64,000 bases of DNA from Tubulanus polymorphus (GCF_964204645.1 NC_134032.1:7862275-7926274); one strand, 5' to 3'; positions 24,493-62,400 are shown, counted from the stretch's first letter. Notes: a model not told the origin generated them from the letters alone. A program made the numbers and translations.

Positions 24493-25502
24493 ATGCCGAG
24501 AGCCACGAGAGCTAAGCGTGCAGTCACCAGTAGACAAAAACGCCCTCGTTCGTCTGCGCTTACTGAAGCGGTTGCCACCCCCGTCAATGCCAGGGACCAA
24601 CCAACTAACCAAACCAACAACCAACAACCAACCAACAGCCAAACAACCAACAACCAGATGCGAATGCCGTCGCGGATATAGTCATTCAAAGACTCATCGA
24701 TAGTCATCTGCTACCAACACGCGACGCCACACAGAACTGCTTCCCGACTCCTGTAGTGAATTCTTCCAATCCTGGTGACGTCACACGGAACTTCTTTTCG
24801 ACACCTGTGGAGAATCCTCCCATTCCTGGTGAGCAACTTATCAGCGAGTTACTTACGTCCTCGCTTCCTTTGGACTTAGCAGTGTCGGAAAAAATAAAGT
24901 CCGATATTTGGGCAGATAGATATATTGATTTGTCGGCTCTTTTGATCGGTACTAAATCTGCCGAAGTTGACACACTTCGTGCTACCCTTTCTGAGAAAGG
25001 AGACTTAACATTGTGTAAACCTAGACGCAAACAGTTGTCATCCATTTACGAATGGAACAAAACATTCGATATCTTCATGTCTGTCTACGTGCAAAGACAT
25101 TCCGATGTTCAGGTTTTCCGTCAGCTGTTGAAATATGCTAGCACTATCCGTCAATTTGCTAACGATTTTGGTTTTCCCGCCGCAAAGAGCTACGATGAGC
25201 AATTCCGCCGATTCAGAGCGGTTTCTCCATCTCTGGCGTGGTCAAAAGTTCACGATGAACTCTGGCTACGGTGTAGTACTATAAGATCGGTAGATCAAAA
25301 GAAGCCCTTTCTTGCGAAGCCCCACCGACAGACAAAGCGTTTTCCGGTCGGTTTCTGCTGGAAATTCTGCCAGACTGGAACCTGCCAGTATAAGCTCTGT
25401 AGAAGAAAGCATGAATGCCCCCATTGCGGTAAAAAACATGCAGCCGACTCATGCACTGCCCAAAATTATTCCGACACCAATAAAACCACACAACTTAGAT
25501 AA
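24493..25502 (+). pseudogene. Ngaro gag-like ORF1, frameshifted within a (CAAC/CAA)n tract (~24596-24656)
   Basis: MPRATRAKR start; IKSDIWADRYIDLSALL, EWNKTFDIF, YDEQFR; C-terminal CWKFC...C..C...H.CPHCGKKH....C zinc knuckles. Confidence 0.8.
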
Positions 25503-27036
25503 TTTGCTAATTGGTTTCAAACAACGGAAGTTTCTGGTAGATGGTTTTACTTACGGGTTTCGTTTAGGATCAGCTACTCAAAGACCATATACTTTGGACA
25601 TCCCAAAGAATCACAAAAGTTTTTTAGATTGTCCTTCCATAGCGAAGGAAAAAATTCTGCATGAATTTGACCTAGGCCGTATTGCCGGTCCTTTCACCAC
25701 ACCTGTTCATAAAAATTATGTATGTAGCCCAATGGGTATAATAGCAAAAAAAGAATCTGGAAAATTTAGACTCATTCACGATCTGTCCTTTCCAGAGGGG
25801 TCCTCAGTAAACGACTTTGTAGAGGACGATCATAAAAAAGTGTCATATGACAACATCGAATCCGTTATTTCACTAGTTCAATTATATGGGCGCGGGTGCC
25901 TTATGGCCAAAGCAGATATTCAAGACGCCTTTCGTTTAATACCCGTCCATCCAGACGATTATCATTTGTTGATGTTTACTTATAACAATATGTATTACTA
26001 TGACCGTTGCCTGCCGATGGGTTGCGCATCATCCTGTCAATTATTTGAAGTATTCAGTTCAGCAATACAATGGATTCTATTGAATAAGAAAGACGTTCAG
26101 CATATCTCCCACCTATTAGACGACTTTTTCTTTATCGGGAGGCCCATTTCTAATCAGTGTAACTTAGCTTTGCACTCATTTTTCGAAATTTGTACAGAAA
26201 CCGGGATTCCCGTAAAACACGATAAGACTGTTCATCCCGGTACATGTTTAATAATATATGGTATTGAAATAGATTCAGACGCTATGGAAGCGCGTCTGCC
26301 ATTAGATAAAGTGGAAAAAATTCGTGCCCAATTGTTGGACAATAAGTGCAAAAAGTCGGTGACGCTCAAGGAACTACAGTCACTGCTAGGCCTGCTCAAT
26401 TTCGCTTGCAGCGTAATCATACCCGGTAGGGCGTTTCTACGGTGCCTCTGCGATCTGACTTGTGGAATATCCCGGCCACATCACAGAATTAGGCTAAATA
26501 ACGAAGCGAGATCTGATTTAACCGCGTGGTGGTCTTTCGTAAACCATTTTAATGGTAAATCATGTTTCTTATATTCATCGTGGACACCGTCTGACGCTAT
26601 TCGTTTGTATAGTGATGCTGCGGGATCGAAAGGTTTTGCAGCTGTTTTCGGTTCTCGTTGGTTCTCGGGTGGCTGGCAACATGATATGCTTGACCACCAC
26701 ATCACGATAAAAGAGTTCTTTCCCATAGTATTAGCGTTAGAAATATGGGGCGGTAACCTAAGAAACCATAAAATACTTTTTATGACCGACAACGCAGCTG
26801 TCGCACATATCATTAACAAAATGACCTCTACTGATAAGGTCATTATGCGTCTGGTCAGACGTTTGGTGCTGGCAGCAATGAAATATAATGTATTTATTCG
26901 GAGCGAGCATATTGCAGGGTACACTAATGTGATCAGTGACAAGTTGTCCCGTTTCTGTTTTCAGGAGGCCAGGCAGTATGCACCGTGGCTGAACAGACTG
27001 CCAACTCCTATACCACCGGCCAGCTACAGAATATAG
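25312..27036 (+). CDS. Ngaro reverse transcriptase-RNase H
   Basis: Open 574-aa frame overlapping gag; GKFRLIHDLS, KADIQDAFR, LPMGCASS, HLLDDFF; RNase H SDAAG, IKEFFPI, TDN, SDKLSR. Confidence 0.92.
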   Translation: MRSPTDRQSVFRSVSAGNSARLEPASISSVEESMNAPIAVKNMQPTHALPKIIPTPIKPHNLDNLLIGFKQRKFLVDGFTYGFRLGSATQRPYTLDIPKNHKSFLDCPSIAKEKILHEFDLGRIAGPFTTPVHKNYVCSPMGIIAKKESGKFRLIHDLSFPEGSSVNDFVEDDHKKVSYDNIESVISLVQLYGRGCLMAKADIQDAFRLIPVHPDDYHLLMFTYNNMYYYDRCLPMGCASSCQLFEVFSSAIQWILLNKKDVQHISHLLDDFFFIGRPISNQCNLALHSFFEICTETGIPVKHDKTVHPGTCLIIYGIEIDSDAMEARLPLDKVEKIRAQLLDNKCKKSVTLKELQSLLGLLNFACSVIIPGRAFLRCLCDLTCGISRPHHRIRLNNEARSDLTAWWSFVNHFNGKSCFLYSSWTPSDAIRLYSDAAGSKGFAAVFGSRWFSGGWQHDMLDHHITIKEFFPIVLALEIWGGNLRNHKILFMTDNAAVAHIINKMTSTDKVIMRLVRRLVLAAMKYNVFIRSEHIAGYTNVISDKLSRFCFQEARQYAPWLNRLPTPIPPASYRI

Positions 27037-27956
27037 TGCAATTTCTTTTCACCAGGTCCGTCGCTCCTTCCACCAGGGCTGCATATCGTCGCGCGGTTGA
27101 GCATTTTCAGAAATTTTTGGTGAACGTCGGCCACCAGGAGCCCTTCTTTCCCTCTTCTGAAGATACTATATCGAAATATATAGCGCATCGGTTTCTGTCA
27201 GGTTAGAGCAGTCCCTCTATTTTTTCATACATTTCAGCAATTAGCTTTTACCATAAATCAGCTCGCCTACCTGACCCCACTGCATCTTTCTTTATAAGAA
27301 AAATCCTAAAAGGCGTCGCAAATTCCATCCCGAGCAGCCCTGACGCCCGTTTACCCATTACAATAGATATTTTGACTCGGTTGGTTGCCGCGATACCCGT
27401 CGTAATGGGCGAGGGCTTCGACGGTATTTTGCTCAAGTCTATGTTCGTCTTGTGTTTTCATGCATTTTTGCGGGTCGGCGAGATATCGGTTAAGTCTAGT
27501 GGCCATGCGACTAAGGTATTACAAAAACATCAGGTCACCTTGTTCCATGGTCCTAATTTAACGCCGATGTTACGCGTCTGTATCACGGACTACAAGCATA
27601 GTGATTTGATACCAAAACCATTGCTGTTGCCAAAGCATTCAAACCCATCCGTTTGTCCGGTCACAATTATATCTCATTACCTCCATGTGAGCAAGCATAC
27701 GTCCGGTCCATTTTTTCAATTTCGAGATGGTGCAGCTGTATCGTATGTTTTTTTTGCAAAATCGCTAATAAAGTTGATATCATTTCTCGGCCTGCCAGTG
27801 GCCAGCTATACATCGCATAGCTTTCGGATTGGCGCCGCAACCAATGCCGCAACGAACGGGGTCCCCGAGCCAGTCATTCGAGAGTTAGGACGATGGAAGT
27901 CAGACGCTTTCAAACGATACATTAGAATCAATCCGGCCGGGACGGGACGACACTAA
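26985..27956 (+). pseudogene. Ngaro tyrosine recombinase with one in-frame TAG (27204-27206)
   Basis: STRAAY, RLPIT, FHAFLRVGE (R), HSFRIGAAT (HxxR), LGRWKSDAFKRY (W, Y); both ORF pieces share one frame. Confidence 0.9.
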
Positions 27957-30501: not shown

Positions 30502-30852
30502 GTACCATCCAAGTAATTTGTCAGAAACAAATGCAAACCCCTCTCTTATAGAGATTCTCACTGGTGAGAATAAAAAAATTTAACTTGCCAGTACGGTGCC
30601 GGCCCTTGATCCTTGTTTGTGATGTATCATTATTCCCATAAAAACATAAAAAGTTCCCTGCCTCTATCCATCATTGCACGCAGGACCGTTTACAGAGTCG
30701 AAATGAAGCAATCTAGCGTAGGTCCTGGGCCAAATGCTCATGGATATATATATCAATATTTTGATTATCAGAGGGAGGGAGGGAGGGAGGGAGAGAGGGA
30801 GGGAGAGAGGAGGAGAGGGAGGGAGGGAGGGAGGGAGGGAGGGAGGGAGGGA
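30502..30852 (+). repeat. ~270-bp segment plus (GGGA)n, direct copy of 37747-38382
   Basis: Near-identical from gtaccatc(c/t)aagtaatttgtc to the GGGA tract. Confidence 0.9.
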
Positions 30853-33473
30853 GCACGGATCGTTGTACGCACCGTTTCTCCCAGCTACCCTCGACGATCT
30901 CAATCTTTTGACTGTCTTTGCTCGAACTTCGTCTCGAACTTTTTCCCGTCGACCTCTTTCTCTTCGCGATGTAATTTCTTTTGAGTCGCGTAATCATCAG
31001 CGAACATAGCGAGTTCCAGCGCACTCAGTTCATCTGTGAAAGTTTCATCCGAAAAGTGTCGCCTCGAAGATTGGACAAAAACTGGTCGGAAACGAGTCTA
31101 TCCAGAATTCTAACATATTCCGAATTTCCCAGTAGCGAATCCGACGGCTTCAAACAGTATCTGGCATATTCTTCCAGTCGCGCGACGAAATCCACGAACG
31201 TTTCGGTGTGATTTTTCGTTTCCCTACGGAACTTCAGACGATACGCGGATGGTGTCAATCTGTATCTGACAAATATCGCATCTTTTACCGTTTTGCACAC
31301 CTTTGTATCGCCATCACTTAACGAAAAGTACGCCTGCTGCACCGGACCGGTCAGATACGGTTCTAACACACTCGTTAAATCGCTGGATGGAATTCCGTAC
31401 CTATTCGCTAAATTTTCAAAAACACGGAACCAGTGATGTATGTCATCATTCTCGGACAGTTTAGTCATTTCATTAATTTTAGCAGGAGAATCTCGAGGTC
31501 GGCTCCGACTATCCGAAATCAGTTTCTGTACAGTGTCCAAAAAGCTTCGTTATCCTCGCGACGAGTAACGGAAAAATGTTCCAGCAATCCTTTAAAACTC
31601 TTTTCAGTGTCGAGAAGAGGTGATGACGGTGTAACTGGAGGGGTGTATGGAGAAACGGGTGATTTTTACCACGACAAATTGACAATCAGTGGCGAAAAAA
31701 GCTAATTTTTGGAAAAAGTAAACGATTTTTTAAAAGCTACCCATATTTATTTTATATCATCGCTTCGCAAATTTTTCAAATAAAATGATGGTAACGACAA
31801 AATTCTGATTTTACTTATGATATTTTAATGATAACCGTTAGAAGATGTTAGGCTTCAGGACCCGGTTCCACAGTTGTTGATTAACTTTTAACTCAGAGTT
31901 AAATTCCCTAACTCAGAGGTAAAAGTAACTCACAGTTAAGTCCGGTTCCACAGTTGTGTGTTAAATTTAACTCTAGAGTCAAATTCCTTAACTCAGGGTG
32001 AAATTCTAACTCTGGGTCAGACCTGAATTAAAATGCTTAACTCAGAGTTTAAAATGGCGGCATTCTACTTATTAGCGAGTAGAGAAGCCAAGAATAAAGA
32101 ATATCGAAGGATTACAAATCAACTGGAAATCACGGATGTTGAATGCTATAATAGATATCGCTTTACAAGAGCGGGTGTGCAGAGAATCGTTGAAATATGT
32201 AAGTAATAGGGGTTTAGTTGTTCTATACCAAAGGTCGAACGGTCGAGCTCGTAAAAAATGAAAAACATAAAAATAATAACAATTTCTACTTGAATTACTC
32301 GCGAAACTTATAAAAAATGAAAAATAATTCTCACACACTCGAATTTATTTTTCATTTTTACTCGCTAGAAAAAGTGTGAGTAAAGTGTGAGTGAAATAAA
32401 TTCGAGCGTGTGAGAGTAATTTTTCATTTTTTATGAGTTTCACTCCTAATTCAAGTAGAAATTGTTATTATTTTCATATTTTTCATTTTTTAATGAACAC
32501 GACCATTCAACTTTAACCTGAAAGCCCATTACCCCTATTACTCTTAAAATATTCATATACATGAATAAAATATATATGAATAACATATAAATTGATAGAT
32601 TATTCAATATAAAAGTGTGAGTGAAATAATTCATATTTAAAACATTGAATATTTATATTTGAATGAGTTTTAATAAAAGTTTTGTTATAAAAATGAAGAA
32701 AGAAGAAGAAGAACCCAACTTTAAAATCGAAATCAATGAAACCAATAAATCATTTTCACAGTCTTAAATTAAAAATTATATTTCAGCAACAAATTTAGTG
32801 TCCGCAAGGTATTATAAAATCGATAATATTACTATGATTAATCAAATATTATCAAATGAAACATATTTAATTATTGAACTAGTAGATACTTTTGATAATG
32901 GCGTTAAAAATCCTAAATTGTTCAATACAGTTTTTAATTTTAAAGGAACTTTAGATGAAAACATAATTAATATTATATTATATGAATAAAAAAACAATAA
33001 GTTAAATAAGTTAGTATTAGATAAAGTAACTTATTGTTTTTTTATTTAAATCTATTTGATTTTTATTCGCGCTATTGGTTAACAAGAATTGACTAGAATT
33101 CAAATAGATTTAACAAGAAATTCAATAACTTTAACTGTTAGTATCACTCGTGTATTATTTCATTGTTTCTCTTATTGAATAAGCCAACTAACTAATATCA
33201 CTCTTGTATTATCCTAGTCAAATGTAAAGAATTTACAATATCATACTTGAATGAATTAAAACATAAATTACTTCTTTTACTTCATTTTCAGAAATAAAGC
33301 ATAATATGTATTTGATACCATTAATACGTATTAAATACCATTAATACGTATTTGATACGTATTTAATACATATTTAATACATTGATACCTCAACCCTCCT
33401 TTTTTAACGTAAATATAATTTACTTATTTTCATACATTTCAACTAATATATTTTATATTTTCAGCGATTTCTT

Positions 33474-33774
33474 ATTTTGAATCATATAATTTTTCATCAA
33501 GTTCATGAATATATTTATGAGTTTTTAAACTCTTTAAATTTTTATATCTTTTATTGCATATTTCACAGCATTTAATATTATTCAATCTATCTGAAATATA
33601 ATTCATATTTTCTATTTATTCAGTGTATCTAATTTTACAGCAATCATAGAATTCTAACAACTTTTTTATACTATAAATTGAAAAAGAAAATAAACCTGTA
33701 AGCATAATAATTGATTTAATATTCTGTTGATTTTTATATATTAGATGTAATAAGTTTAATATATTTTCACTCAT
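33474..33774 (-). pseudogene. Small hydrophobic plus C2H2 zinc-finger ORF with internal TAA
   Basis: MSENILNLLHLIY...IRYTE*IENMNY...CEICNKRYKNLKSLKTHKYIH; homolog at 43528-43830 (+). Confidence 0.5.
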
Positions 33775-33794
33775 TTATTTATTTAATTAATTCA

Positions 33795-33992
33795 CTAATC
33801 TGATTCAATAACTTTTTTATGATTATTTTTATTTCCATTTAATTTTTTCAATTTCTTGCTCAATTTTATATTTTCATTCATCAAATCCATACTAATATTC
33901 TCATAGTATAAATGAAGCGCAGCCAATATTAATCCTCCTGCTACAAGATAATGTTTCAAATCACTTTTCCCAGTTGGGATGAAACCATCCAT
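33795..33992 (-). CDS. 65-aa single-pass membrane-like protein with basic tail
   Basis: Hydrophobic YLVAGGLILAALHLYY then K/N-rich tail; TAAATG start context. Confidence 0.45.
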   Translation of the reverse strand: MDGFIPTGKSDLKHYLVAGGLILAALHLYYENISMDLMNENIKLSKKLKKLNGNKNNHKKVIESD

Positions 33993-34049
33993 TTATTTAA
34001 GAAAGAAATTAAACAGTTTATAAAATATTAAATATTTATATGTTTCAAT

Positions 34050-36324
34050 TCAAATAACAATTAAACTTACTACTAATTCTTTATGCCGCTGAGAATTATA
34101 TTTTTGCTTGTGCGTAATCAATTTTATCACCTGATATTCTGTTATATTATTCTTAATTATTTCTTTATCGAAAAATTCATTTGATATGTAAATATTTTCA
34201 TCATTATGAATTAAAATTAGATGGCGCAATTTATTTCTAAAATATCTAGGATTAATGAAATCAATATTATATTCAGAATTATCTTTCAATAGTTCTAAAC
34301 GCTCGCATTGCTTAATTTTCATCATATTGTTAAGTTTCATTTTTCTTAAATAATCAGATTCTTTACGTATATCACATACATTTATGAAATCATTAGAATT
34401 TATCTTTAAATATTCAGTATATTTTTTCATCAATTCAAAATCCATTTTATCAATTATTTCAAAATGATCGTGTGTTATCTTCTTTACTTGGAAAATAGGT
34501 TTTTCTAATTTTGATAAAATAAAGTGTCTATCAGGGCTATGAACGCCTATTTTTAACTTTTTGATGATTTTTTCTATCGAAGACAATTCAAAATAATTAT
34601 TATTTAATACGTCTAATTGTAATGTTTTTATCAATAATTCTCTTAAACCTGTAGTAGTTTCATAAAAGCCTTGATCTGTTAAAATATAACTGAAATAAAG
34701 ATCTGTTATACATTTACATTGAGTTGAAAAACCTCTAATTTCAAAAATTGTATTATTGTCAATTCCAGATATTTTAGGAGTATAATCATTTAATTTCACT
34801 TCAGGAATTATTTCAAGTTTTTTAAATTCTGTCTCAAATAATTCATTATCAATATCTAATTGTTGCTTTAATTCATTACAAATTTTGTTTCTATTTTCAT
34901 CTATATCTTCTTGTAATTGTTTAAGTTCTTTCATCTCTTCTAACTTTTTAAATTCACTTTTAGATAATAATTTTAAATCAAAATCTTCTTCAATATCAAG
35001 TGCATCTAATTTATAAAAAGGTTTAGATTTTATATTGTATCTCTTTTTTAAAGTTGTAAAACTAATTCCTGTTTCACGTAATTTAAATCTAAATATAAAT
35101 TTATTCAATACTGTAAACATTGAATTAGTTGAAGATATAACAGTTGCTCCTTCAGTTTTAATATATTTTTTTGCTTCAATAATGAATTCTGATTTATCAT
35201 CATTTTGATCAATTGTTAGGTATAAACATGGGATATTCTTAATTGTAAACATTGATAAAATAAGTAAAAAGGAGGACTCTTCAATATTTTTACTTATCCT
35301 AGATTTATATCCTATAAATTTCCTTGCTAATAAATCACCATAATAACAGAAATAAAAGCATTTTTCAATCAAATCATAAATACATACAGTCTGTTGAACC
35401 TCATCAAATAATGATTTAAGTTGTAAATATGTAGGTGAATAGTAAATATTTTCTTTTTTTAAGTATTGTTTTATTTTTTCCATCACTTTTAATCCTCTTT
35501 TAAATGAAATACTTGTTATTTCAATTCTAATCAATCCTGTTTCAATTGATTTTTCAAATGATTCTTTTATTTTTCTAGCAATTTATGTAACTCATTAAAT
35601 TTGAACCGAAATTTATATTTACACCAGGAGATTTGAATTGACATGCTGTTTTATTATAGATCTTTATTTTATCATCCTTATGTAATGCTGAAACACAACT
35701 ATTGGAAAATTCTTTTAGAACTTTATATTTTATATTTTCGAACATTGATTTTATTTCATCTGAATTAAATGATCCTTTAAAATCTTGTGTCACATCTACA
35801 TCTAATATATTGTAATTTTTTTCATTTAATAATTTTTCAATATTATCTATTTTCTGTATTAATTCATTTAAATTTTGATTGCATAATGAAATTTTAAATA
35901 CAGCAATATAATCTGTTAATTTTAATTCTTGATTAATTCTACTTAATATATATGATTTTGAATTATCATCATGAATTGTTAAAACACGTGTAATTTTTAT
36001 AGCTAAGTTATCCAATATAATATCTCCTTGATTAAAACATTCTTTAATTTCATAATGTGTTATCTTTCTCTGATTAACGTTTAGAAAAGTTGTTCTATTT
36101 TCTTTAATAATTTCTTTTTCTAACATGATTTTATATAGCATTATATTATCGCAAAATATATCTGATGTTTCAATTAATTCATTATTTTCAGATTTATAAT
36201 ACTTATTTATATTTACTCCTGAAATATCTGCTAAATTATTGTTAACAGTTAAATAATATAATATTGAATTTATATATTTATTACTCATGTCTTTCGCGGG
36301 AACTTTAATTAATCTTGTGCACAT
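34050..36324 (-). pseudogene. Main protein of AT-rich element (~760 aa when the 249- and 494-aa ORFs are joined across a frameshift near 35575); candidate Rep_trans-like nickase
   Basis: DVDVTQD (~35782-35802), KIKIYNK (~35650-35670), GLIRIEIT (~35514-35537); the downstream frame is already open upstream of its annotated start (ARKIKESFEKSIETGLIRIE). Confidence 0.5.
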
Positions 36325-36394
36325 TTATATATCAAATTTTTATTAAAATAGGTTAAAATTCAAAAAGAGTTAGAGTTCGCTGAAACCTTACGCT

Positions 36395-36622
36395 TTAAAA
36401 TATTTTTTTACCCTTATTGGATTTATGTGATTTTAAATATTTACCTCCGCAATAACAATGCACTTTTTCATTAGGATTGAATTTTCTAAATTCATCATCT
36501 AAATTACATTGAACTGCAATATCTTTATATGATTTTTCATTATCTAATTCACATTGAATTCCAATATTTGATGAATTTTCATTGTAGATAATTTGTTTAT
36601 TATCAAAATTGAAATAATACAA
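36395..36622 (-). CDS. 75-aa hypothetical protein, partial zinc finger (HCYCGGKY) and two GIQC/AVQC motifs
   Basis: ORF track; tightly packed with neighbours. Confidence 0.4.
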   Translation of the reverse strand: MYYFNFDNKQIIYNENSSNIGIQCELDNEKSYKDIAVQCNLDDEFRKFNPNEKVHCYCGGKYLKSHKSNKGKKIF

Positions 36623-36625
36623 TTG

Positions 36626-37006
36626 TCAAATCAAATCATTGTAATCTTTTGAAAGTATTATATCATCATTTCTTTCATTGAAAGGAGTTTTAAGAATATT
36701 AATTATGTTTTCATCTAAAGTTCCTTTAAAATTAAAAACTGTATTGAACAATTTAGGATTTTTAACGCCATTATCAAAAGTATCTACTAGTTCAATAATT
36801 AAATATGTTTCATTTGATAATATTTGATTAATCATAGTAATATTATCGATTTTATAATGTCTTGCGGACACTAAATTTGTTGCTGAAATATAATTTTTAA
36901 TGTCAAACTGTGAAAATGATTTATTGGTTTCATTGATTTCGATTTTAAAGTTGGGTTCTTCTTCTTCTTTCTTCATTTTTATAACAAAACTTTTATTAAA
37001 ACTCAT
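36626..37006 (-). CDS. 126-aa hypothetical protein beginning inside the right TIR
   Basis: ATG ORF; a broken mirror copy lies in the left TIR (32663-32989). Confidence 0.5.
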   Translation of the reverse strand: MSFNKSFVIKMKKEEEEPNFKIEINETNKSFSQFDIKNYISATNLVSARHYKIDNITMINQILSNETYLIIELVDTFDNGVKNPKLFNTVFNFKGTLDENIINILKTPFNERNDDIILSKDYNDLI

Positions 37007-38024
37007 TCAAATATAAATATTCAATGTTTTAAATATGAATTATTTCACTCACACTTTTATATTGAATAATCTATCAATTTATATGTTATTCATATATATT
37101 TTATTCATGTATATGAATATTTTAAGAGTAATAGGGGTAATGGGCTTTCAGGTTAAAGTTGAATGGTCGTGTTCATTAAAAAATGAACTCATAAAAAATG
37201 AAAAATTATTCTCACACGCTCGAATTTATTTCACTCACACTTTACTCACACTTTTTTCTAGCGAGTAAAAATGAAAAATAAATTCGAGTGTGTGAGAATT
37301 ATTTTTCATTTTTTATAAGTTTCGCGAGTAATTCAAGTAGAAATTGTTATTATTTTTATGTTTTTCATTTTTTACGAGCTCGACCGTTCGACCTTTGGTA
37401 TAGAACAACTAAACCCCTATTACTTATGTAGACCATTGATGGCAGAAAAAACGTGCAATCGTGGATTGCCTTTGACTGTCGAACTGCAAGTTCCTATGGC
37501 ACCTCGATTTTATGCCAGTGGCTCATTTTAGGAGGTAATCGGAGATAGTTTTGGTGTATCGAAATCAACAGTTTCGAGATCCGTTACTCGTGTGACCGAC
37601 GCACTTCACCGATACGAAGAAAGCAGATTTTATCAAGTTTCCGAGAGACCCAGCAGAACTGGCAAAAACGAAATCTGATTTTTATGAAGTCGGAAATTTC
37701 CCCGGTGTTATTGCTTGTGTTGATGGAACACATATACGTATCTAAGTACCATCTAAGTAATTTGTCTGAAACAAATGCAAACCCCTCTCTTAGAGAGATT
37801 CTCACTGGTGAGAATAAAAAAATTTAACTTGCCAGTACGGTGCCGGCCCTTGATCCTTGTTTGTGATGTATCATTATTCCCATAAAAACATAAAAAGTTC
37901 CCTGCCTCTATCCATCATTGCACGCAGGACCGTTTACAGAGTCGAAATGAAGCAATCTAGCGTAGGTTCTGGGCCAAATGCTCATGGATATATATATATA
38001 TATATATCAATATTCTAATTATCA

Positions 38025-38382
38025 GAGGGAGGGAGGGAGGGAGGGAGGGAGGGAGGGAGGGAGGGAGGGACGGACGGACGGACGGAGGGAGGGAGGGAGG
38101 GAGGTAAGGGAGGGAGGGAGGGAGGGAGGGAGGGAGGGAGGGAGGGAGGGAGGGAGGGAGGGAGGGAGGGAGGGAGGGAGGGAGGGAGGGAGGGAGGGAG
38201 GGAGGGAGGGAGGGAGGGAGGGAGGGAGGGAGGGAGGGAGGGAGGGAGGGAGGGAGGGAGGGAGGGAGGGAGGGAGGGAGGGAGGGAGGGAGGGAGGGAG
38301 GGAGGGAGGGAGGGAGGGAGGGAGGGAGGGAGGGAGGGAGGGAGGGAGGGAGGGAGGGAGGGAGGGAGGGAGGGAGGGAGGG
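38025..38382. repeat. (GGGA)n microsatellite, ~350 bp
   Basis: Direct observation. Confidence 0.97.
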
Positions 38383-42075: not shown

Positions 42076-42620
42076 GCTGGTCTCAGTGGCTCCCAGTGGG
42101 ACGGAGGCGTGATGCTGTTGCATCTGCACTATCAGTCCTGATTGACAAGCAAGTTTGAAAACTTGAAAATCAAGTGGGTTCGAGTCCCGCTGGCTGCGTA
42201 GAAAGCTGAAAATCAAGTGGGTTCGAGTCCTGCTGGCTGCGTACAAAGCTGAAAATCAAGTGGGTTCGAGCCCCGCTGGCTGCGTACAAAGCTGAAAATC
42301 AAGTGGGTTCGAGTCCCGCTGGCTGCGTACAAAGCTGAAAAACAAGTGGGTTCGAGTCCTGCTGGCTGCGTACGAAGCTGAAAATCAAGTGGGTTCGAGT
42401 CCTGCTGGCTGCGTACAAAGCTGAAAATCAAGTGGGTTCGAGTCCTTCTAGCTGTTTACAAAGCTGAGTGACAAGTGGGTTCGAGTCTTGCTGTTTGCTT
42501 ACAGTGCGCGGGCAACACTTCAAAAGCTAAAGTCCCGTCGTGAGGTTAAATAAGCAATAGTCTTTGGGAAACCAAGATCCAAACGACGTAAATAGAAATG
42601 AAGAAATAAAATTGAAATAG
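42076..42620 (+). mobile_element. tRNA-derived SINE with tandemly amplified 43-bp B-box unit
   Basis: A-box-like tggctcccagtgg ~42087; eight GGTTCGAG(T/C)C copies 42177-42488; A-rich tail. Confidence 0.65.
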
Positions 42621-42712: not shown

Positions 42713-43094
42713 GTGGATCGGTATTTCTTTGACTATTTAATTAGTTGAATTTTTGTTTTGAACCACATCTCATTTTTTATAAAGTGCAGTGAAACTTCGT
42801 AGTTCAAAAAATAAAAATATCAACATTTCATTGTCAATATCATTATCATAACATTATCATTTATCATTTTCCTTTTCAATATCAATATCAAATCATTGTC
42901 ATTAATAACGTATCGTTTATGGTGTGTATGGATGAACTTTTTTCAGAGCCAGTTTTCGATCTCACGTTTTGAGCATCAGCGATTTTCAAACGGTTTTAAC
43001 GGATTACGGAGTTTGTTTCTCGTATCAACAGCAAGCTTTCGCAAAAGGGACAGGTTAGTAAAACTGGTCTTAAGGGGCGGGTTAGTAGTTAGTT

Positions 43095-44064
43095 AATTGA
43101 TAAAATGGATTTTTAATTGATGAAAAAGTAAACTGAATATTTAAAGATAAATTCAAATGATTTCATTAATGTGTGTGATATACGTAAATAATCTGATTAT
43201 TTAAGAAAAATGAAACTTAACAATATGAAAATTAAGCAATGCGAGCATTTAGAACTGTTGAAAGATAATTCTGAATATAATATTGATTTCATTAATCCTA
43301 GATATTTTAGAAATAAATTGTGCCATCTAATTTTAATTCATAATGAATAAAATATTTACATATCAAATGAATTTTTTGATAAAGAAATGGGTAAGAATAA
43401 TATAACAGATTATCAGTTGATAAAATTGATTACGCACAAGCAAAAATATAATTCTCAGCGGCATAAAGAATTAGTAGTAAGTCTAATTGTTATTTGATTT
43501 GAAACATTTAAAAGTTTAATATTTTAAATGAGCGAAAATATACTAAACTTATTACATCTAATATATAAAAATCAACAGAATATTGAATCAATTATTATGC
43601 TTACAGGATTAGTTTCATTCTCAGTTTACTCATAAAAACAGTTATTTGAATTTTATGATAATTGCAAAATTAGATACGCTGAATAAAAAGATAACATAAA
43701 TTATCTTTCAGATAGATTGAATAATATTAAATGCTGTGAAATATGCAATAAAAGATATAAAAATAAAAAATGATTAAGGAATCATAGATATATTCTTGAA
43801 TTAGATGAAAAGTTTTATAATTCAAATTAAGTTTGATGATGGACAGTAGTACTTCTTATTTGCTTCAATTTTTATATCCAATTTTTTATCAAAATTAATT
43901 TTAAAAGTTATTCATATTCATATATATGAATATTCTAAAAGTAATCAATGGGAATATGGGGGTTCATAACAAAGGTTGTGGGGTCGAAGAATTAATTCGA
44001 GTGTGCATGAATTTATTTTTCGACCGTTCGACCTTTGGTATGAACCCCTATTATCCCTATTACT
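43095..44064 (+). mobile_element. Second AT-rich TIR element, half 1 (C-terminus of main ORF, zinc-finger ORF, terminus)
   Basis: Homologous to 33470-34455 in reverse; ends ...tatccctattact followed by ACTGTA. Confidence 0.85.
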
Positions 44065-44206
44065 ACTGTAGGGCAAGTAGCGATAAGATTTTACAAGCGC
44101 CACCCGTACAGCGCCCCCTAGCGATTAAATTTGGAAAACCGTTCTATAAGTTTTTAGCCCTTGGCCCATAGTATCTACATACGTTTCGTCAACATCGGAC
44201 CATAAT

Positions 44207-46246
44207 TGTAAGACGAATATGTGATGGACCGGTAAAGTCCGGTATCCGGCTTTTACCGAGTCCAAATCCATATTTTAGTGACCCCGTATTGTGTGGGGAT
44301 TCTTTTGTTCTCTTTTGGCGTGGTAATAAAAGAAGGAAGACGTTAGGTAAATCTCGGCGTGGTCTTAGATTAATTTAGAGGTTCTGTGGAAACGATTATT
44401 CCCCCTTTCTTGATTGAGCCAACGAAAAAGGAGATTTCACAAATGGTGGCAGCGTACTGGGATTTTTAGAACCTTAAAACTGTGGAAATATTGAACGTAT
44501 AGTCTGTGTAAATTCTCTCACGGAGAGACGGAAAGTTATCGGTTTATATACGGCAACTGAGATTAATCTGGTGTCGGTTATTAGTTTGCTACTGTCTGTT
44601 GAGTTAACCTCCAGTGTTTTTACCTCAGATTGCAGACCCTAACCCACCTTTAATACAGCCAGCAATTATCAGTGTAGGCCTAAATTAAATGTATATATTT
44701 ATTTATCACTTCTCCAATAACGTCGGCTAATGGACAGGATCTTCACCTAAGAGGGATAGAGATAGTACGGCTTACATTAAGGGATCGTGACTTTGATATC
44801 TCCATGGTTATTGTAGATGATATTACTCAAGATTGTCTACTTGGTAGTGATTTCTTTGAGTCCTTTGAGTCCTTCAACTGCAAGATTGATTTTGAATTAA
44901 AGGAGCTTACTTTTGGCACGGCTAGCATTCCACTTCGAAATCAAGAGAGTAAGGCCAGATGCTGCAGGATTTTCGCCAGTAAAACCTTGTGTATCCCGGC
45001 GGGAACAGAGATAGTCACTAGTGGTATAATGAGACGTAAACTCGTGGGTAATAACTCGTCTTCAGGTACCATTGAGAACTTAAAATTATCGGGTCTGATG
45101 GCTGCCAAAGTAGTAGCAACGACATCGAAGAATCGCACACTGGTGCGACTAGCAGATTATACCGATTCACCACAGTGGATAAAAAGGGGCCAACCCATCG
45201 CCTGGTTTAGTCCAATTGAATCCCTGACCTTATCCCTGATTAATGAGGGCGAAAAGAGTGACCAGGACCGTTTAGTCTCACAGGGACCGATCCCTGAAGA
45301 AAAGGTCCAGTCCGTGCTAGATGACTTGCAGATTGCGGACATGGGGATTCCGGAGGAGGCCAAAAAGGAATTGACCAGTGCAATCCGGAGCAACATTGAT
45401 GTGTTCTCGACAGGTGATTTCGATCTGGGGCGCACTAGCCTATTAGAACACGAAATTGACACCCAGGATACTCGTCCGATTAAGCAAAACCCTCGTCGAA
45501 TACCACATCATCGACAAAAATTTGTGTAGGACACGACTGATCAACTTCTAGAACGGGGTTTGATACGTGAGTCACATGGAGCTTGGTCAAGCCCGATAGT
45601 CCTCGCAAAGAAAGCAGATGGCTCACTTAGATTCTGTGTGGACTACCGTAAACTTAATGAGGCCACGGTCAAAGATGCCCATCCATTACCGAGGGTTGAC
45701 TCGACGCTTGAGACTCTTGCGGGATCAACGAGGTTTTCGTCACTCGATCTTGCAAGTGGATACTGGCAGATGCCCGTGAGTGAGGCAGATAAAGCGAAAA
45801 CGGCCTTCGCTACAGAAAGGGGCTTATTCGAATGGAACGTCATGCCATCTAGTTTATACGTCCATGGGCTAACCAATGCACCTGCGTCGTTTTCACGGCT
45901 GGTGGCTCTGGTTTTGGACCCCGTGGCAAGGAAAACTTGTTTAGTGTATCTGGACGATGTTATTGTTTTCAGCCCTGACTTGGGAAGTCATCTTAATCGT
46001 TTTTTCGAAGTTTTTGCCTGTTTCCGAGCAGCTAACTTGAAGCTGAAACCCAAGAAGTGCCACTTGTTTCGGAGGATACTGAAATTCCTAGGTCATATAG
46101 TTAGCGGGGCTGGAATCCACACTGATCCGGAGAAAGTACAGCGAGTGATTGATTGGCCGGCCCCCTCCAACTTATCTGAACTTAGGAGTTTCATTGGACT
46201 CGTCGCATATTACTCTCGCTTCATTGAAGATTATGCATCGAATGCT
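44207..46246 (+). mobile_element. Truncated Gypsy LTR retrotransposon (5' LTR ~44207-44441, PBS TGGTGGCAGCG, protease end, RT)
   Basis: TG...CA LTR with AATAAA; CLLGSDF, DLGRTSLLEHEIDT, RFCVDYRKLN, SLDLASGYWQ, YLDDV, FLGHIV; stop at 45527-45529; gag largely absent. Confidence 0.87.
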
Positions 46247-46364
46247 TAAAGTTTTGATTTAAGCCTCATAATTGCAATGCGAAATTAAGCAGACACTTTT
46301 TTTCGTAAAACTGCTGCAGCTTAGCCCCAAGCAAGATGTCACATCAAACATGGGGTTTGTGCAA

Positions 46365-47529
46365 ATCTTTAAAATCTTGTGTAACATCTACATCTAATAT
46401 ATTGTAATTTTTTTCATTTAATAATTTTCCAATATTATCCATTTTCTGAATTAATTCATTTAAATTTTGATTGCATAATGAAATTTTAAATACAGCAATA
46501 TGATCTGTTAATTTTAATTCTTGATTAATTTTACTTCAGATATATGATTTTGAATTATCATCATGAATTGTTAAAACACGTGTAATTTTTATAGCTAAGT
46601 TATCCAATATAATATTTCCTTGATTAAAACATTCCTTAATTTCATAATGTGTTATTTTTCTCTGGTTAACGTTAAGAAAATTTGTTCTATTTTCTTTAAT
46701 AATCTCTTTTTCTAACATGATTCTATATAGCATTATATTATCGCAAAATATATCTGACGTTTCAATTAATTCATTATTTTTAGATTTATAATACTTATTT
46801 ATATTTACTCCTGAAATATCGGGTAAATTATTATTCACAGTTAAATAATACAGTATTGAATTTATGTATTCATTACTCATGTCTTTCGCGGGAACTTTGA
46901 TTCTTCTTGAGCACATTTTTATATCAAATTGTTATTAAAATAAGTTAAAATTCAAAAAGAGTTAGAGTTCGCTGAAACCTTACGCTTTAAAATATTTTTT
47001 TACCCTTATTGGTATTGCTTATTCATTCCCTTAACACATGTTCTACAATAACTTTGCTTACCATCTTTCTGAGTTTTATAATTATAATATTCCGAGAGTT
47101 GTTTATTCACTTCACATTTTGAACATTTCTTGTAGTAAATATTTATAACCCCAGGACCCAGTTCCACAGTTGTGAGTTAGAGTTAACTCTGAGTTAAAAT
47201 TAGTTCATTTTCAATGAGTTAACTCAGGGTCAAATTTTAGCTCCGAAATGTGGAACTGGACCCAGTACAGTATTATTTGTAATATCGTTGGTTGGTGGTT
47301 GTTCTGACGGACAGTAGTACTTCTTATTTGCTTCCATTTTAATATCCAATTTTTTATCAAAATTGATTTTAGAAATTATTCATATTCATGTATATGAATA
47401 TTCTAAGAGTAATAGGGATAATAGGGGTTCATAACAAAGTTTGAGGGGTCGAAAAATAAATTCGAGTGTGCGAGAATTTATTTTTCGACCGTTCAACCTT
47501 TGGTATGAACCCCTATTATCCCTATCACT
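46365..47529 (-). mobile_element. Second AT-rich TIR element, half 2 (N-terminus of main ORF, treble-clef-like zinc-finger ORF, terminus)
   Basis: Close homolog of 35775-36420; ends ...tatccctatcact followed by TACAGT. Confidence 0.85.
47154..47263. mobile_element. Short Harbinger-family MITE
   Basis: ggacccagttccaca ... tgtggaactggaccc inverted ends, matching the Harbinger end at 31859. Confidence 0.7.
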
Positions 47530-50500
47530 TACAGTTATTCCCAATCTTGACGAAATTTGATATGTCAATAATTTTGGCCATGGGCTAAATGTTGCTGAGC
47601 CATTTTCCCAAACTGATATTTAGAGAGCGCTGTACAGGTCACACTTGTCAAATTTTTCAATTGCTACTAGTCCTACAATCATTATTTGATATTGACAAAG
47701 CTTGGTATTGAACTTTGTGAGTGCTGTGTAGGTGGTCCTTGTAAAATCTTATCATAAAACAGCGGAGCTGTATCAGCCGATAGGCTGCTTGTCTCTCTCC
47801 GCACTGCAGCTTACAATATTCTCCACCAGAGAGCCTGTACTAAATTCTCCCAAGTCTCGTTTTTACTTTGAATCCTCGGGCAAATTTATCATCCTGGTGT
47901 CAAAATTATGATTTACTACTTCTATGATTTACTACTTTACTATATGTAAGTTTTACTTGCCGACCCTCTCCCTCCCATTCCTTCCCCTATCTATCTCCCT
48001 CCCCTATCCCTCCCCCTCCCTCGATACCAGGAACTGTGAATTTGCTCTAAACCTAAAGCTGTTGTTACACATAAATTATTGAATGAATATTTAATTTATT
48101 ATTTTCCTAATACTGGGATCGAGGGACTCTTATGTGTGCGTGGTTTACCTTATATAAAGTGGCTGGAACTGAGGGGATTATGTGCGTGGATAGTGGAGTT
48201 CCCAATGTCGGCGATGTCGGCAAGTAAAACTAACCTATACATCCAATTGCCGGCACTTCTCGCTGTACGATCTCTTCACATTGCGTCTTAGAAACCAAAT
48301 CACTACGTATACTTCCGTTTCTAGACAATCATACATGGAACGATCCAATTTGATGCAAAATACGAAACTTTCTGAAAGATTACCCCGCCTTCAAATGCTA
48401 TAATTCTATAATTCCCCGTAATTTGATAAACTCACTGGATATAAGTATATATTACAAACCGACTTTTGGGTCCCCAAAGTCTGTTCTGAAGACCCAACTG
48501 TATTCCAAAAACAAGACTTCATTCGAGATATGTGTAATCATATTAGCCGGTTAGTCGCACTCTGACGTGGAGAGCAGATTGGTAAGTTCAAACCCACTAA
48601 ATACAGAATTTAAAAGATGAAAAACAATTATATTTATCAAAAATTAAAATCACCTAACTATGGTCTCTTGTGAGAATAAAATTCGTGTTTGATCTTTCAA
48701 ACTGTATATAGAGGGTTTTGGAAAAAGTGTAGTCATATCATTTAGACAGTTTTGATATATAAAATTCAAATGTAAGTGGTGACTGTGAACCACAAGAACG
48801 AACAGCGACGATACTACGAGGAACCCCGAATCCAACGAATACGTATAGCGAACGAAACCAGCGACGACCCAGAAACAACAAGGCAGTGTGTTCAGTTACA
48901 AAGTTTAGTACGGTCTAACATTATATTTATTTGTGCCAAAAGATTACAGGCAAACTCAGTGGAAGTAATGCATGTTCTCCGATTGGTTGAAAGATATCAG
49001 TACTTCATGGTTCATGGCAGTACTTTACGGTTCGTCGGTTCATGGCGTGGTGTTTGTATTCCGGATATGCACGTCGTGACAATGTAAACAACTTAAAACT
49101 TCAATATTTAGGAATGCAAAACTGCATGACGAGCATTTGCACAATAACCCCATGTTTGATGTGACATCTTGCTTGGGGCTAAACTGCAGCAGTTTTACGA
49201 AAAAAGTGTCTGCTTAGTTTCGCATTGCTATTATGAGGCTTAAATCAAAACTTGAATCAGTTTTAATCGTAGTGTTAATTGAGAAACCAATAGCGATGAT
49301 TAAAAAGAGACACTTTTTCACAGTCCACTGCGCTTAAATTGCCATTGCAAATTAGAAGCATTTGTATCCTATATTTCATTTGGTACGAGTTTTATCCTAC
49401 GATCGTCGTATGGATTTAGCCAGTCTCGGCTGATACAATAGAAGCGTTTACTATTGATAGATAGCAAAAGCGGGAAGGAAGACCTCTTGCCAATATACGT
49501 ACTTCATTCAGCTCAAAATTCCATGCTGATCTGATATTACTGAGAACAAAGAATTATGCAATTGTCGACCCAAAACAGATGGTTGTATCAAGTTCAAATA
49601 ATCATATTTCTAGTGGTTCGACTCCCGTTTTCTGGTTGAATGAATAGTGCCGAGGTCATAGGAAAAACTACGTAATGCGGTTATGTCCCACGTCCAGAGA
49701 ACGAGAAAAAAGAAGCATTGTCGAAAAAACTTTCCTCCACACCCCGACCATCAGATCCCAAGCGATATTGCGGAAGTTTAAGACCCAGTTCGACAGTTAT
49801 TGGTTGAAATTTAGATTCAAGCACTGAAATTTGAGGGTTCATAGAGTCAAATGTTCTGACAATTGTGGAACCGAGTCTTGTGACAAAAATGGTGAATACC
49901 GAGTCGATATCGAATACTGGGTAAGAGTTTGAATGACACAGTAAACCTAGCCTTGCTCGGACATGACTAACAATGGCAAAATAATTTTTCTGCGTATTTT
50001 GTTATCCTGATCTCGGACTTCGCGTGCCTCAGCCCAATTTTACTAGTCCCAATGTGTCCTTGTTGGGTGAAATTTACTCAACAATAAACACAACCTCTCT
50101 TACTCTGTACCGTATACACTGAGTTAGAATTTCTGAAATACGGTAGACTCTGTCTCTTGTTCAGTTCAGTTGATAGTGGTTCAATTCTACCGGTAAAATG
50201 TAACAGGTGTACTCGATTTGTGCAAACGTTATGCATATATTTGAAACAAAAACCGATTAGATGAATGTGGCACCTTGCTTAAAGCTGTAGTTTTTAATCG
50301 ATGTGCTTATTGAAAAAAAAATGTGAAAAGCAAAGTGAAAATCTGAATTCTAAATCTCCAACTCCCTCTTCCGGTCTTTGACCTGCTCCGATCTATTACT
50401 GGCTAACTGTAATACTTTTCAGATATTCGCTGCGAACCTGCATTCCGTCAGCACTCGGGCGATTGTACGACTGCCAGACGGGCTCGCCGATAAAAAAACG

Positions 50501-61632: not shown

Positions 61633-62400
61633 CTATCGTTTAGGAATTTTGCGAGATTTTATTGGAAACGTTACGACGATTAAATGTTCTAGGCTGAGCA
61701 GTACAGTGCACCAGTTACGAGTTATCTGAAATATATAGAAAAACGGCAAAGATATTGATACAAAAATGAACCCGAAAATCCATTCATTTTTGCGAAACAC
61801 AATATTGCCTAAAATGGTGTAAATGTATACAGTTCTCAGCGGATAAATAATGAATGTAGCGATCATAAACAAAATATCGTTTATAGCGCGAATTTTGATG
61901 AGAAACTAAACATCAGATTTCATTGTTATAGAACAAACAAACAGCGTTAACGCGTTGAATGTAATAATACCCAGTACTGAAGATAACAGATAACATCCCA
62001 AGAACATTAAAACGCTGAATTTTAAAATGTAGTTAATCCGGCGTGTAAGAAATATCTGGCATGAGCAGAGGGGCAAATCACGACATGATAAGATAAAAAC
62101 CCACTATCTAAGAATTTAAAGAAGTCTAAAATCGAGAATTTATTTATTGAAACAATCTAAAATATAGGAACACGTCGTTTCGATCTCACACTAAAGATCA
62201 TCGTCAGGTGTGAACTCTAGTGTGAGATCGAAACGTCGTCTTCTTATGTTTTAGATTGTTTCAATAAATAAATTCTCGATTGTAGATTTCTTTTAATTTT
62301 TAAATAGTGGGTTTTTATCTTATCATCTGTTCACCACGTTTGAGTGTGGTTATCGTACTATAATCACGACACCTGAACACAATCTATAGTTCATTTACAT
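61633..62400 (-). pseudogene. Decayed paralog of the 38651 GPCR
   Basis: KSDV*FLIK...YPLRTVYIY...WIFG...PFFYIFQITRNWCTVLLSLEHL..TFPIKSR aligns with KDVYYLLK...YPLRTIHLY...WLFG...PFYMFQQTRNWCVILVSLERL..IFPLKSR; stop codon and insertion. Confidence 0.8.
62086..62361. mobile_element. Penelope-like inverted pseudo-LTR insertion with 10-bp TSD
   Basis: TSD AATCACGACA 62076-62085 / 62362-62371; ~105-bp inverted arms; CTGACGA...GAAAC core on minus strand 62171-62210. Confidence 0.6.

Follow-up and report, generated by a model that had tools for sequence, protein, structure and literature searches.

The 64,000-nucleotide window of the Tubulanus polymorphus genome analysed here (the whole stretch GCF_964204645.1 NC_134032.1:7862275-7926274) contains a 5,223-bp inserted element with hairpin-forming ends, whose main gene is predicted from modelled structure to encode a Rep_trans-type tyrosine nickase, that is, one with a TBP fold and not of the HUH kind. 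The explanation we favour, and to which we give slightly better than even prospects, is that this is a hairpin-ended replicon which has its own Rep_trans-like nickase and integrates by means of a Polinton-type integrase supplied in trans. The Polinton-type integration step is proposed because of the marks left at the insertion sites, and dependence on a Polinton helper would be plausible; no evidence of borrowed capsids or of extrachromosomal forms was found in the host. The element, its target site duplications (TSDs), its terminal inverted repeats (TIRs) and the interrupted host sequence are placed in the window as follows.

32202..37424, no strand assigned: whole element, 5,223 bp, 22% GC, with its empty-site joint present in reads
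32196..32201, plus strand: left TSD, TATGTA
37425..37430, plus strand: right TSD, TATGTA
32202..32974, plus strand: left TIR, 773 bp
36695..37424, minus strand: right TIR, 730 bp, with 44 bp missing inside the palindrome
32202..32542, no strand assigned: palindrome at the left end, predicted to fold as a single-strand hairpin, -91.5 kcal/mol, z -16.1
37127..37424, no strand assigned: right terminal palindrome, predicted hairpin, -58.6 kcal/mol
32054..32200, plus strand: host Harbinger-like frame, left of the insertion
37427..37742, plus strand: degraded Harbinger-like frame of the host, to the right of the insertion

The insert described in the first-pass annotation was confirmed in its length, TATGTA duplication, AGT…ACT ends, TIR lengths and base composition, the latter being 22.2% GC; most bins of 1 kb across the window have ~35-45%. 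It starts with AGTAATAGGGG and ends with CCCCTATTACT, its termini are of the 5'-AGT…ACT-3' type, and both TIRs are nearly identical apart from the 44-bp stretch absent on the right. All interior open reading frames (ORFs) are on the minus strand, and so are co-oriented as previously noted. Translated separately, the flanks read …VEIC on the left and (C)RPL… on the right in Harbinger-like frames, and the right flank matches HTH_Tnp_4 with an E-value of 4.5e-5, under the curated cut-off. In public runs under the same species label, the empty-site joint 32195->37425, which skips 5,229 bp (the element and one TSD), is spanned by one X1 contig and by 36 raw reads of run X5 with 23 starts; these may come from an allele without the element or from a different Harbinger copy. 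The host copy in the window is degraded, with a stop and a frame change.

From the base composition, the chance of a matching pair of hexamers is 3.5e-4 per site, and a 6-bp TSD was found at both copies of the element in the window (2/2), the second on condition that an inversion is allowed for. This second copy is laid out as follows.

43094..44064, plus strand: 3' portion, with the end of the Rep gene, small ORFs and a ~228-bp TIR with a 125-bp hairpin
46367..47529, minus strand: 5' portion, with the start of the Rep gene (95% nucleotide identity) and a TIR with a 122-bp hairpin, z -16.6
44065..44070, minus strand: TSD, TACAGT on the minus strand
47530..47535, plus strand: TSD, TACAGT

The second copy is rearranged, its interior is 86-95% identical to that of the first, its TIRs are ~228 bp long and its hairpins 122-125 bp. 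The hexamers flanking it are reverse complements of each other; they count as a TSD because inversion of the 3' portion, which we infer, would account for a TACAGT duplication. A Gypsy-like protease/reverse transcriptase fragment is located at 44684-46249, within the segment presumed inverted, and a very-high-copy short repeat occurs both inside this copy (47152-47263) and beside the first (31860-32050), with X5 depth up to ~17,000.

Both the ends and the 6-bp TSD fit the marks of Maverick/Polinton integration, as had been suggested: vertebrate Mavericks have (AGT)2//(ACT)2 ends and 6-bp TSDs (PMC8097293; statements on this and the other papers cited here refer to the accessible parts of their text). 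The element shares with Polintons long TIRs, AGT…ACT ends, the 6-bp TSD and an intronless AT-rich interior. Long TIRs with AG…CT termini and a 6-bp TSD are Polinton features that the element has; the end motif is AGTAGT in those Mavericks and AGTAAT here. The element is, however, 5 kb long compared with 15-25 kb in Polintons, and in place of protein-primed polymerase, integrase, ATPase, protease and capsid genes, none of which was detected, it carries a predicted nickase and terminal hairpins.

The terminal palindromes with their hairpins, as well as the second copy, were absent from the first-pass annotation and are added here. Over its outer 300-340 bp, each TIR is itself palindromic and predicted to fold into a long hairpin. 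On the left this palindrome is imperfect and comprises the outer 341 bp, the base of its stem coincides with the end of the element, and the stability of its hairpin was equalled by 0/100 shuffled sequences. A conserved 22-mer, for which there were 0 matches in IMG/VR, is common to the outer arms of both subfamilies and the inner arms differ; the same arm is outermost at 4/4 ends in the window. Terminal hairpins, by which parvovirus-like rolling-hairpin replicons are recognised, are present as predicted folds.

Two long frames in the interior are halves of one gene: they align with consecutive parts of P0001, a natural relative of 757 amino acids, at 48% and 33% identity.

35575..36324, minus strand: 5' part of the Rep gene, 249 amino acids, motifs CDNI, DVDVTQD and KIYNK
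34050..35582, minus strand: 3' part of the Rep gene, out of frame with the 5' part, 510 codons between stops, RxE motif

The regions downstream of RxE are modelled in P0001 as one long helix with two domains rich in beta-strands. Identification of these C-terminal domains as OB-fold/single-stranded DNA-binding protein was considered on weak BFVD matches given without range, and is not claimed. The Rep family consists of 171 clusters for which Pfam gives nothing informative; it includes named insect proteins, from Planococcus citri and Cacopsylla melanoneura, and has a near-invariant motif set D / DxTxD / KxYNK / RxE. In the alignment D65 is conserved in 83/83, D191 in 88/89, E283 in 91/93, Y236 in 90/91, K234 in 89/91 and K238 in 91/91 sequences. 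In AlphaFold models the protein forms a TBP-like saddle, and the three Rep_trans metal ligands together with the Tyr and Lys lie in order on beta-strands; catalytic residues were mapped by hand, with strands taken from the model and the RepD residues from the literature. A curved TBP-like beta-sheet as catalytic domain is thus predicted, and the acidic triad, the catalytic Tyr and its neighbouring basic residues are arranged as in Rep_trans. No conserved HxH was found among columns conserved at ≥60%, and the modelled fold aligns with TBP, which is not in accordance with an HUH enzyme.

The Rep_trans-like nickase proposed from the first reading of this DNA is therefore well supported at the level of residues and predicted fold, and not by profile scores. 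PF02486 did not match P0001, 20 family members, or the proteins in further scans of 18 and 41. Scans against Pfam, PHROGs, PDB sequences and ESM Atlas features gave no informative match for Rep, the single Pfam match in the family being a Rho_N domain in 1/41 proteins, and Rep_trans chains were not among the best 50 matches listed in either wide structure search. Since TBP scores equal or exceed those of Rep_trans in structure searches, one could suppose that an ordinary non-autonomous transposon here carries a TBP-like protein which binds DNA and has no catalytic role. We consider this very improbable: the acidic triad and the Tyr/Lys are near-invariant and in Rep_trans order among proteins that are only ~20% identical, and TBP itself is not known to have such an acidic/Tyr/Lys site.

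A tree of 88 cores places P0001, P0004, P0154 and P0155, which are closest to the window, in one clade and the named mealybug proteins in another; it was made by a quick method with the careful search unfinished, and is not used for claims on origin. The Planococcus citri members P0009, P0010 and P0128 (LOC135836840, LOC135836843) are annotated chromosomal genes with several isoforms, and in isoform P0128 the acidic motif is degenerate. They possibly represent domestication or decay.

Rep is the only large gene of the element, and all other frames have at most 126 codons.

36626..37006, minus strand: 126-amino-acid ORF which starts inside the right TIR, no family
36398..36625, minus strand: open frame of 76 codons containing a CxCG motif, no family
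33795..33992, minus strand: 65-amino-acid ORF with a hydrophobic stretch, no family
33619..33774, minus strand: 52-amino-acid ORF that includes a hydrophobic stretch; its counterpart in the second copy is 85% identical
33475..33615, minus strand: frame of 47 codons that matches a C2H2 zinc finger (E 2.4e-4, under the cut-off)

The 126-amino-acid ORF has a broken partial duplicate in the left TIR, and no counterpart of the small ORFs was found in 16 related loci. There was no Pfam or PHROG match to integrase or protein-primed PolB in any ORF of the element, nor to packaging ATPase, protease or jelly-roll capsids among the frames of up to 126 codons, which bears out the earlier statement that no core Polinton gene is detectable in its ORFs.

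In 15 metagenome loci the Rep gene stands alone, beside unannotated ORFs, or degraded in host-like DNA (L014), and the 12 neighbouring ORFs of relatives that were scanned include no integrase, polymerase, ATPase or capsid. The suggestion that the element is not simply a deleted Polinton was likewise upheld, because the Rep family occurs in many short contigs without Polinton genes. L001 and L012 are cut off within inverted repeats of 99% identity, and L007 consists of a head-to-head duplication; no long inverted repeat was found in the other 13 of the 16 loci checked. Upstream of Rep in L002 (346-1491) there is a 382-amino-acid ORF without a Pfam match, the start of which resembles the Rep C-terminal beta domain and the end of which is CxxC/HNH-like by eye. 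No Rep relatives were found in IMG/VR, phages or plasmids. A search for fusion proteins of 1,841-5,000 amino acids gave none, which is weak evidence. GTDB contains one locus, L018, an intact family member of 1,040 codons on a lone 3,575-bp contig in an Acidobacteriota metagenome-assembled genome. It is probably mis-binned eukaryotic DNA, because the contig stands alone and no relative was found in 300 other genomes of its phylum.

That Rep is the only large gene both here and in the 15 metagenome loci, which reach ~7.7 kb (L001+L002), would also be expected of a self-sufficient new class of transposons, in which a Rep dimer cuts 6 bp apart and integrates without a helper. Rep_trans enzymes nick, religate and act as dimers, and TSDs, although of variable length, are left by the Rep of Replitron-1 (PMC10288648). 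Known Rep transposons, however, mostly have no TSD (PMC10288648), whereas the fixed 6-bp TSD at 2/2 sites and the AGT…ACT ends match the marks of Mavericks, and we find self-integration improbable.

The ends of the element are far more common than its gene. In X5, reads cover the Rep gene to a depth of ~20-50, the ends to 630-1,600 and a single short stretch of low-copy flank to ~7, which suggests, as a crude estimate, ~3-7 copies of the Rep gene compared with >100 ends. Reads leave the element at position 37424 (413 reads) and at the inner palindrome boundary, 32542 (684 reads), with mixed continuations at both exit points (agreement 0.35 and 0.34, respectively). The 684 reads at the inner-arm boundary could represent flipped ends, solo hairpins or other interiors. 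Because the depth of ends (~630-1,600) far exceeds that of Rep (20-50), it can be argued that many elements with such ends have other interiors, and that the element is a Polinton derivative or chimera, its TIRs and hairpins coming from a host Polinton family and its Rep cassette being a passenger captured from a small virus, virus segment or linear plasmid. For Polinton-like viruses, a model exists in which replicases are swapped beside the TIRs (PMC11296320), and the ends in the window show no DNA similarity to the metagenome relatives. On the other hand, both diverged subfamilies in the window, which differ in TIR interiors and hairpin lengths, hold Rep and small ORFs between their ends, and unrelated relatives likewise end in inverted repeats. 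We therefore regard such a chimera as rather unlikely, if the most serious of the alternatives.

In the favoured case of a replicon that borrows a Polinton integrase, Rep would nick at or near the base of the hairpin stem, its tyrosine holding it on the 5' end, and a host polymerase would extend the free 3' end by rolling-hairpin or strand-displacement copying, in which the beta-rich C-terminal domains perhaps assist. Copying would yield linear double-stranded ends of the form 5'-AGT…ACT-3', like those of Polintons, and the retroviral-like DDE integrase of a resident Polinton would insert them with a 6-bp stagger. Most genomic copies would be shorter derivatives that retain only the ends. Structural scores are only moderate, and the comparison with Rep_trans profiles is not significant (hhalign probability 0.9% and 0.5%). 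Two observations count against classical rolling-hairpin replication in particular: no flipped ends are present among the four in the window, and L006 and L008 are circular permutations of one ~2.2-kb unit with part of a Rep-family gene, which hints at a circle or a tandem array. Taken as a whole, the interpretation in the first-pass annotation is partly supported.

Several known systems resemble the element in part. Parvoviruses and densoviruses are ~5 kb long and have hairpin-folding inverted ends and a Rep nickase; here, in contrast, neither an HUH/SF3 NS1 nor a capsid was detected, the insertion is precise and TSD-flanked, and the four ends in the window show no flip/flop. Transpovirons are small linear TIR-flanked elements without a capsid which depend on a larger virus, but they encode an SF1 helicase, no gene for which was detected in the element, and ride giant viruses of amoebae. 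With Rep_trans proteins (PF02486: RepC/RepD of pT181/pC221, RepSTK1, inovirus gII-type) the predicted enzyme shares the TBP-like saddle and, in the same order on beta-strands, the acidic metal triad, catalytic Tyr, Lys and RxE. It differs from them in having no PF02486 match, a D in place of R140, a longer insert past the Tyr and a length of 750-1,200 amino acids with extra domains, and in belonging to an animal TIR-flanked element and not to a bacterial circle. Archaeal Rep-Arvir (DUF7845) is likewise a TBP-fold Rep, recognised by marginal Foldseek matches (TBP, RepDE) and catalytic residues (PMC13107129), but it has KHYYM where KxYNK is present here and it is found in archaeal viruses and plasmids; DUF7845 had no Pfam match in any Rep family member scanned. 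Replitrons and Helitrons are also eukaryotic mobile DNA with a rolling-circle nickase as main gene. Their enzymes are, however, of the HUH type, and Replitrons carry short repeats in direct orientation and mostly lack a TSD (PMC10288648), unlike the predicted TBP-fold enzyme, long inverted repeats and fixed 6-bp TSD found here.

According to the accessible literature, Rep_trans enzymes seem to be confined to bacteria, a distant branch in archaea having been added in 2026 (PMC13107129), TBP-fold initiators are listed only for bacterial and archaeal viruses (PMC13595969), and those Rep transposons that have been described from eukaryotes are driven by HUH enzymes (PMC10288648). Our literature searches, the scope of which was papers outside subscription, without supplements and Repbase/Dfam, revealed no description of such an element or of a eukaryotic Rep_trans-type enzyme; an unclassified entry for the element may exist in Repbase/Dfam. 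The accessible parts of PMC11071296, PMC6431247, bioRxiv 10.64898/2026.10.13.758929 and 10.64898/2026.06.19.733378 describe no such element, and the term 'Rep_trans' is absent in three of those four, where searched. The element resembles a Rep_trans replicon with Polinton-style insertion, yet it lacks the defining features of both groups and can be assigned to neither, because PF02486 gives no score and neither PolB nor integrase nor capsid was detected. Whether it represents an undescribed eukaryotic class, i.e. hairpin-ended replicons with a TBP-fold nickase which as Polinton satellites hijack the integrase (and perhaps virions) by mimicry of the ends, is in our estimate an evenly balanced matter. 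If so, this would be the first TBP-fold (Rep_trans) nickase lineage in eukaryotes and the first Polinton satellite carrying its own replication initiator, and the 171-cluster family in genomes of insects and other animals would extend the Rep_trans class to eukaryotes. A self-copying element with Polinton-type insertion would be a parasite of Polintons, and would show indirectly where Polinton integrases have recently been active in animals.

The surroundings of the element in the window include an intronless 7tm_1 receptor gene near it, which together with the repeat content points to a probable invertebrate host, and a 350-bp direct duplication (93%) with GGA-rich microsatellite at 30502-30850 and 37746-38104, which flanks the host Harbinger. 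At 24609-27953 there are three long frames (gag-like, reverse transcriptase and tyrosine recombinase) which, judging by their motifs, resemble a DIRS-type retroelement. A 243-bp palindrome (88%) at 62085-62326 is foldback-like or like a miniature inverted-repeat transposable element, and its sequence is unrelated to the hairpins of the element. A tandem array of 43-bp units extends over 42116-42545, and its unit contains GGTTCGAGTCC, which resembles a tRNA B box.

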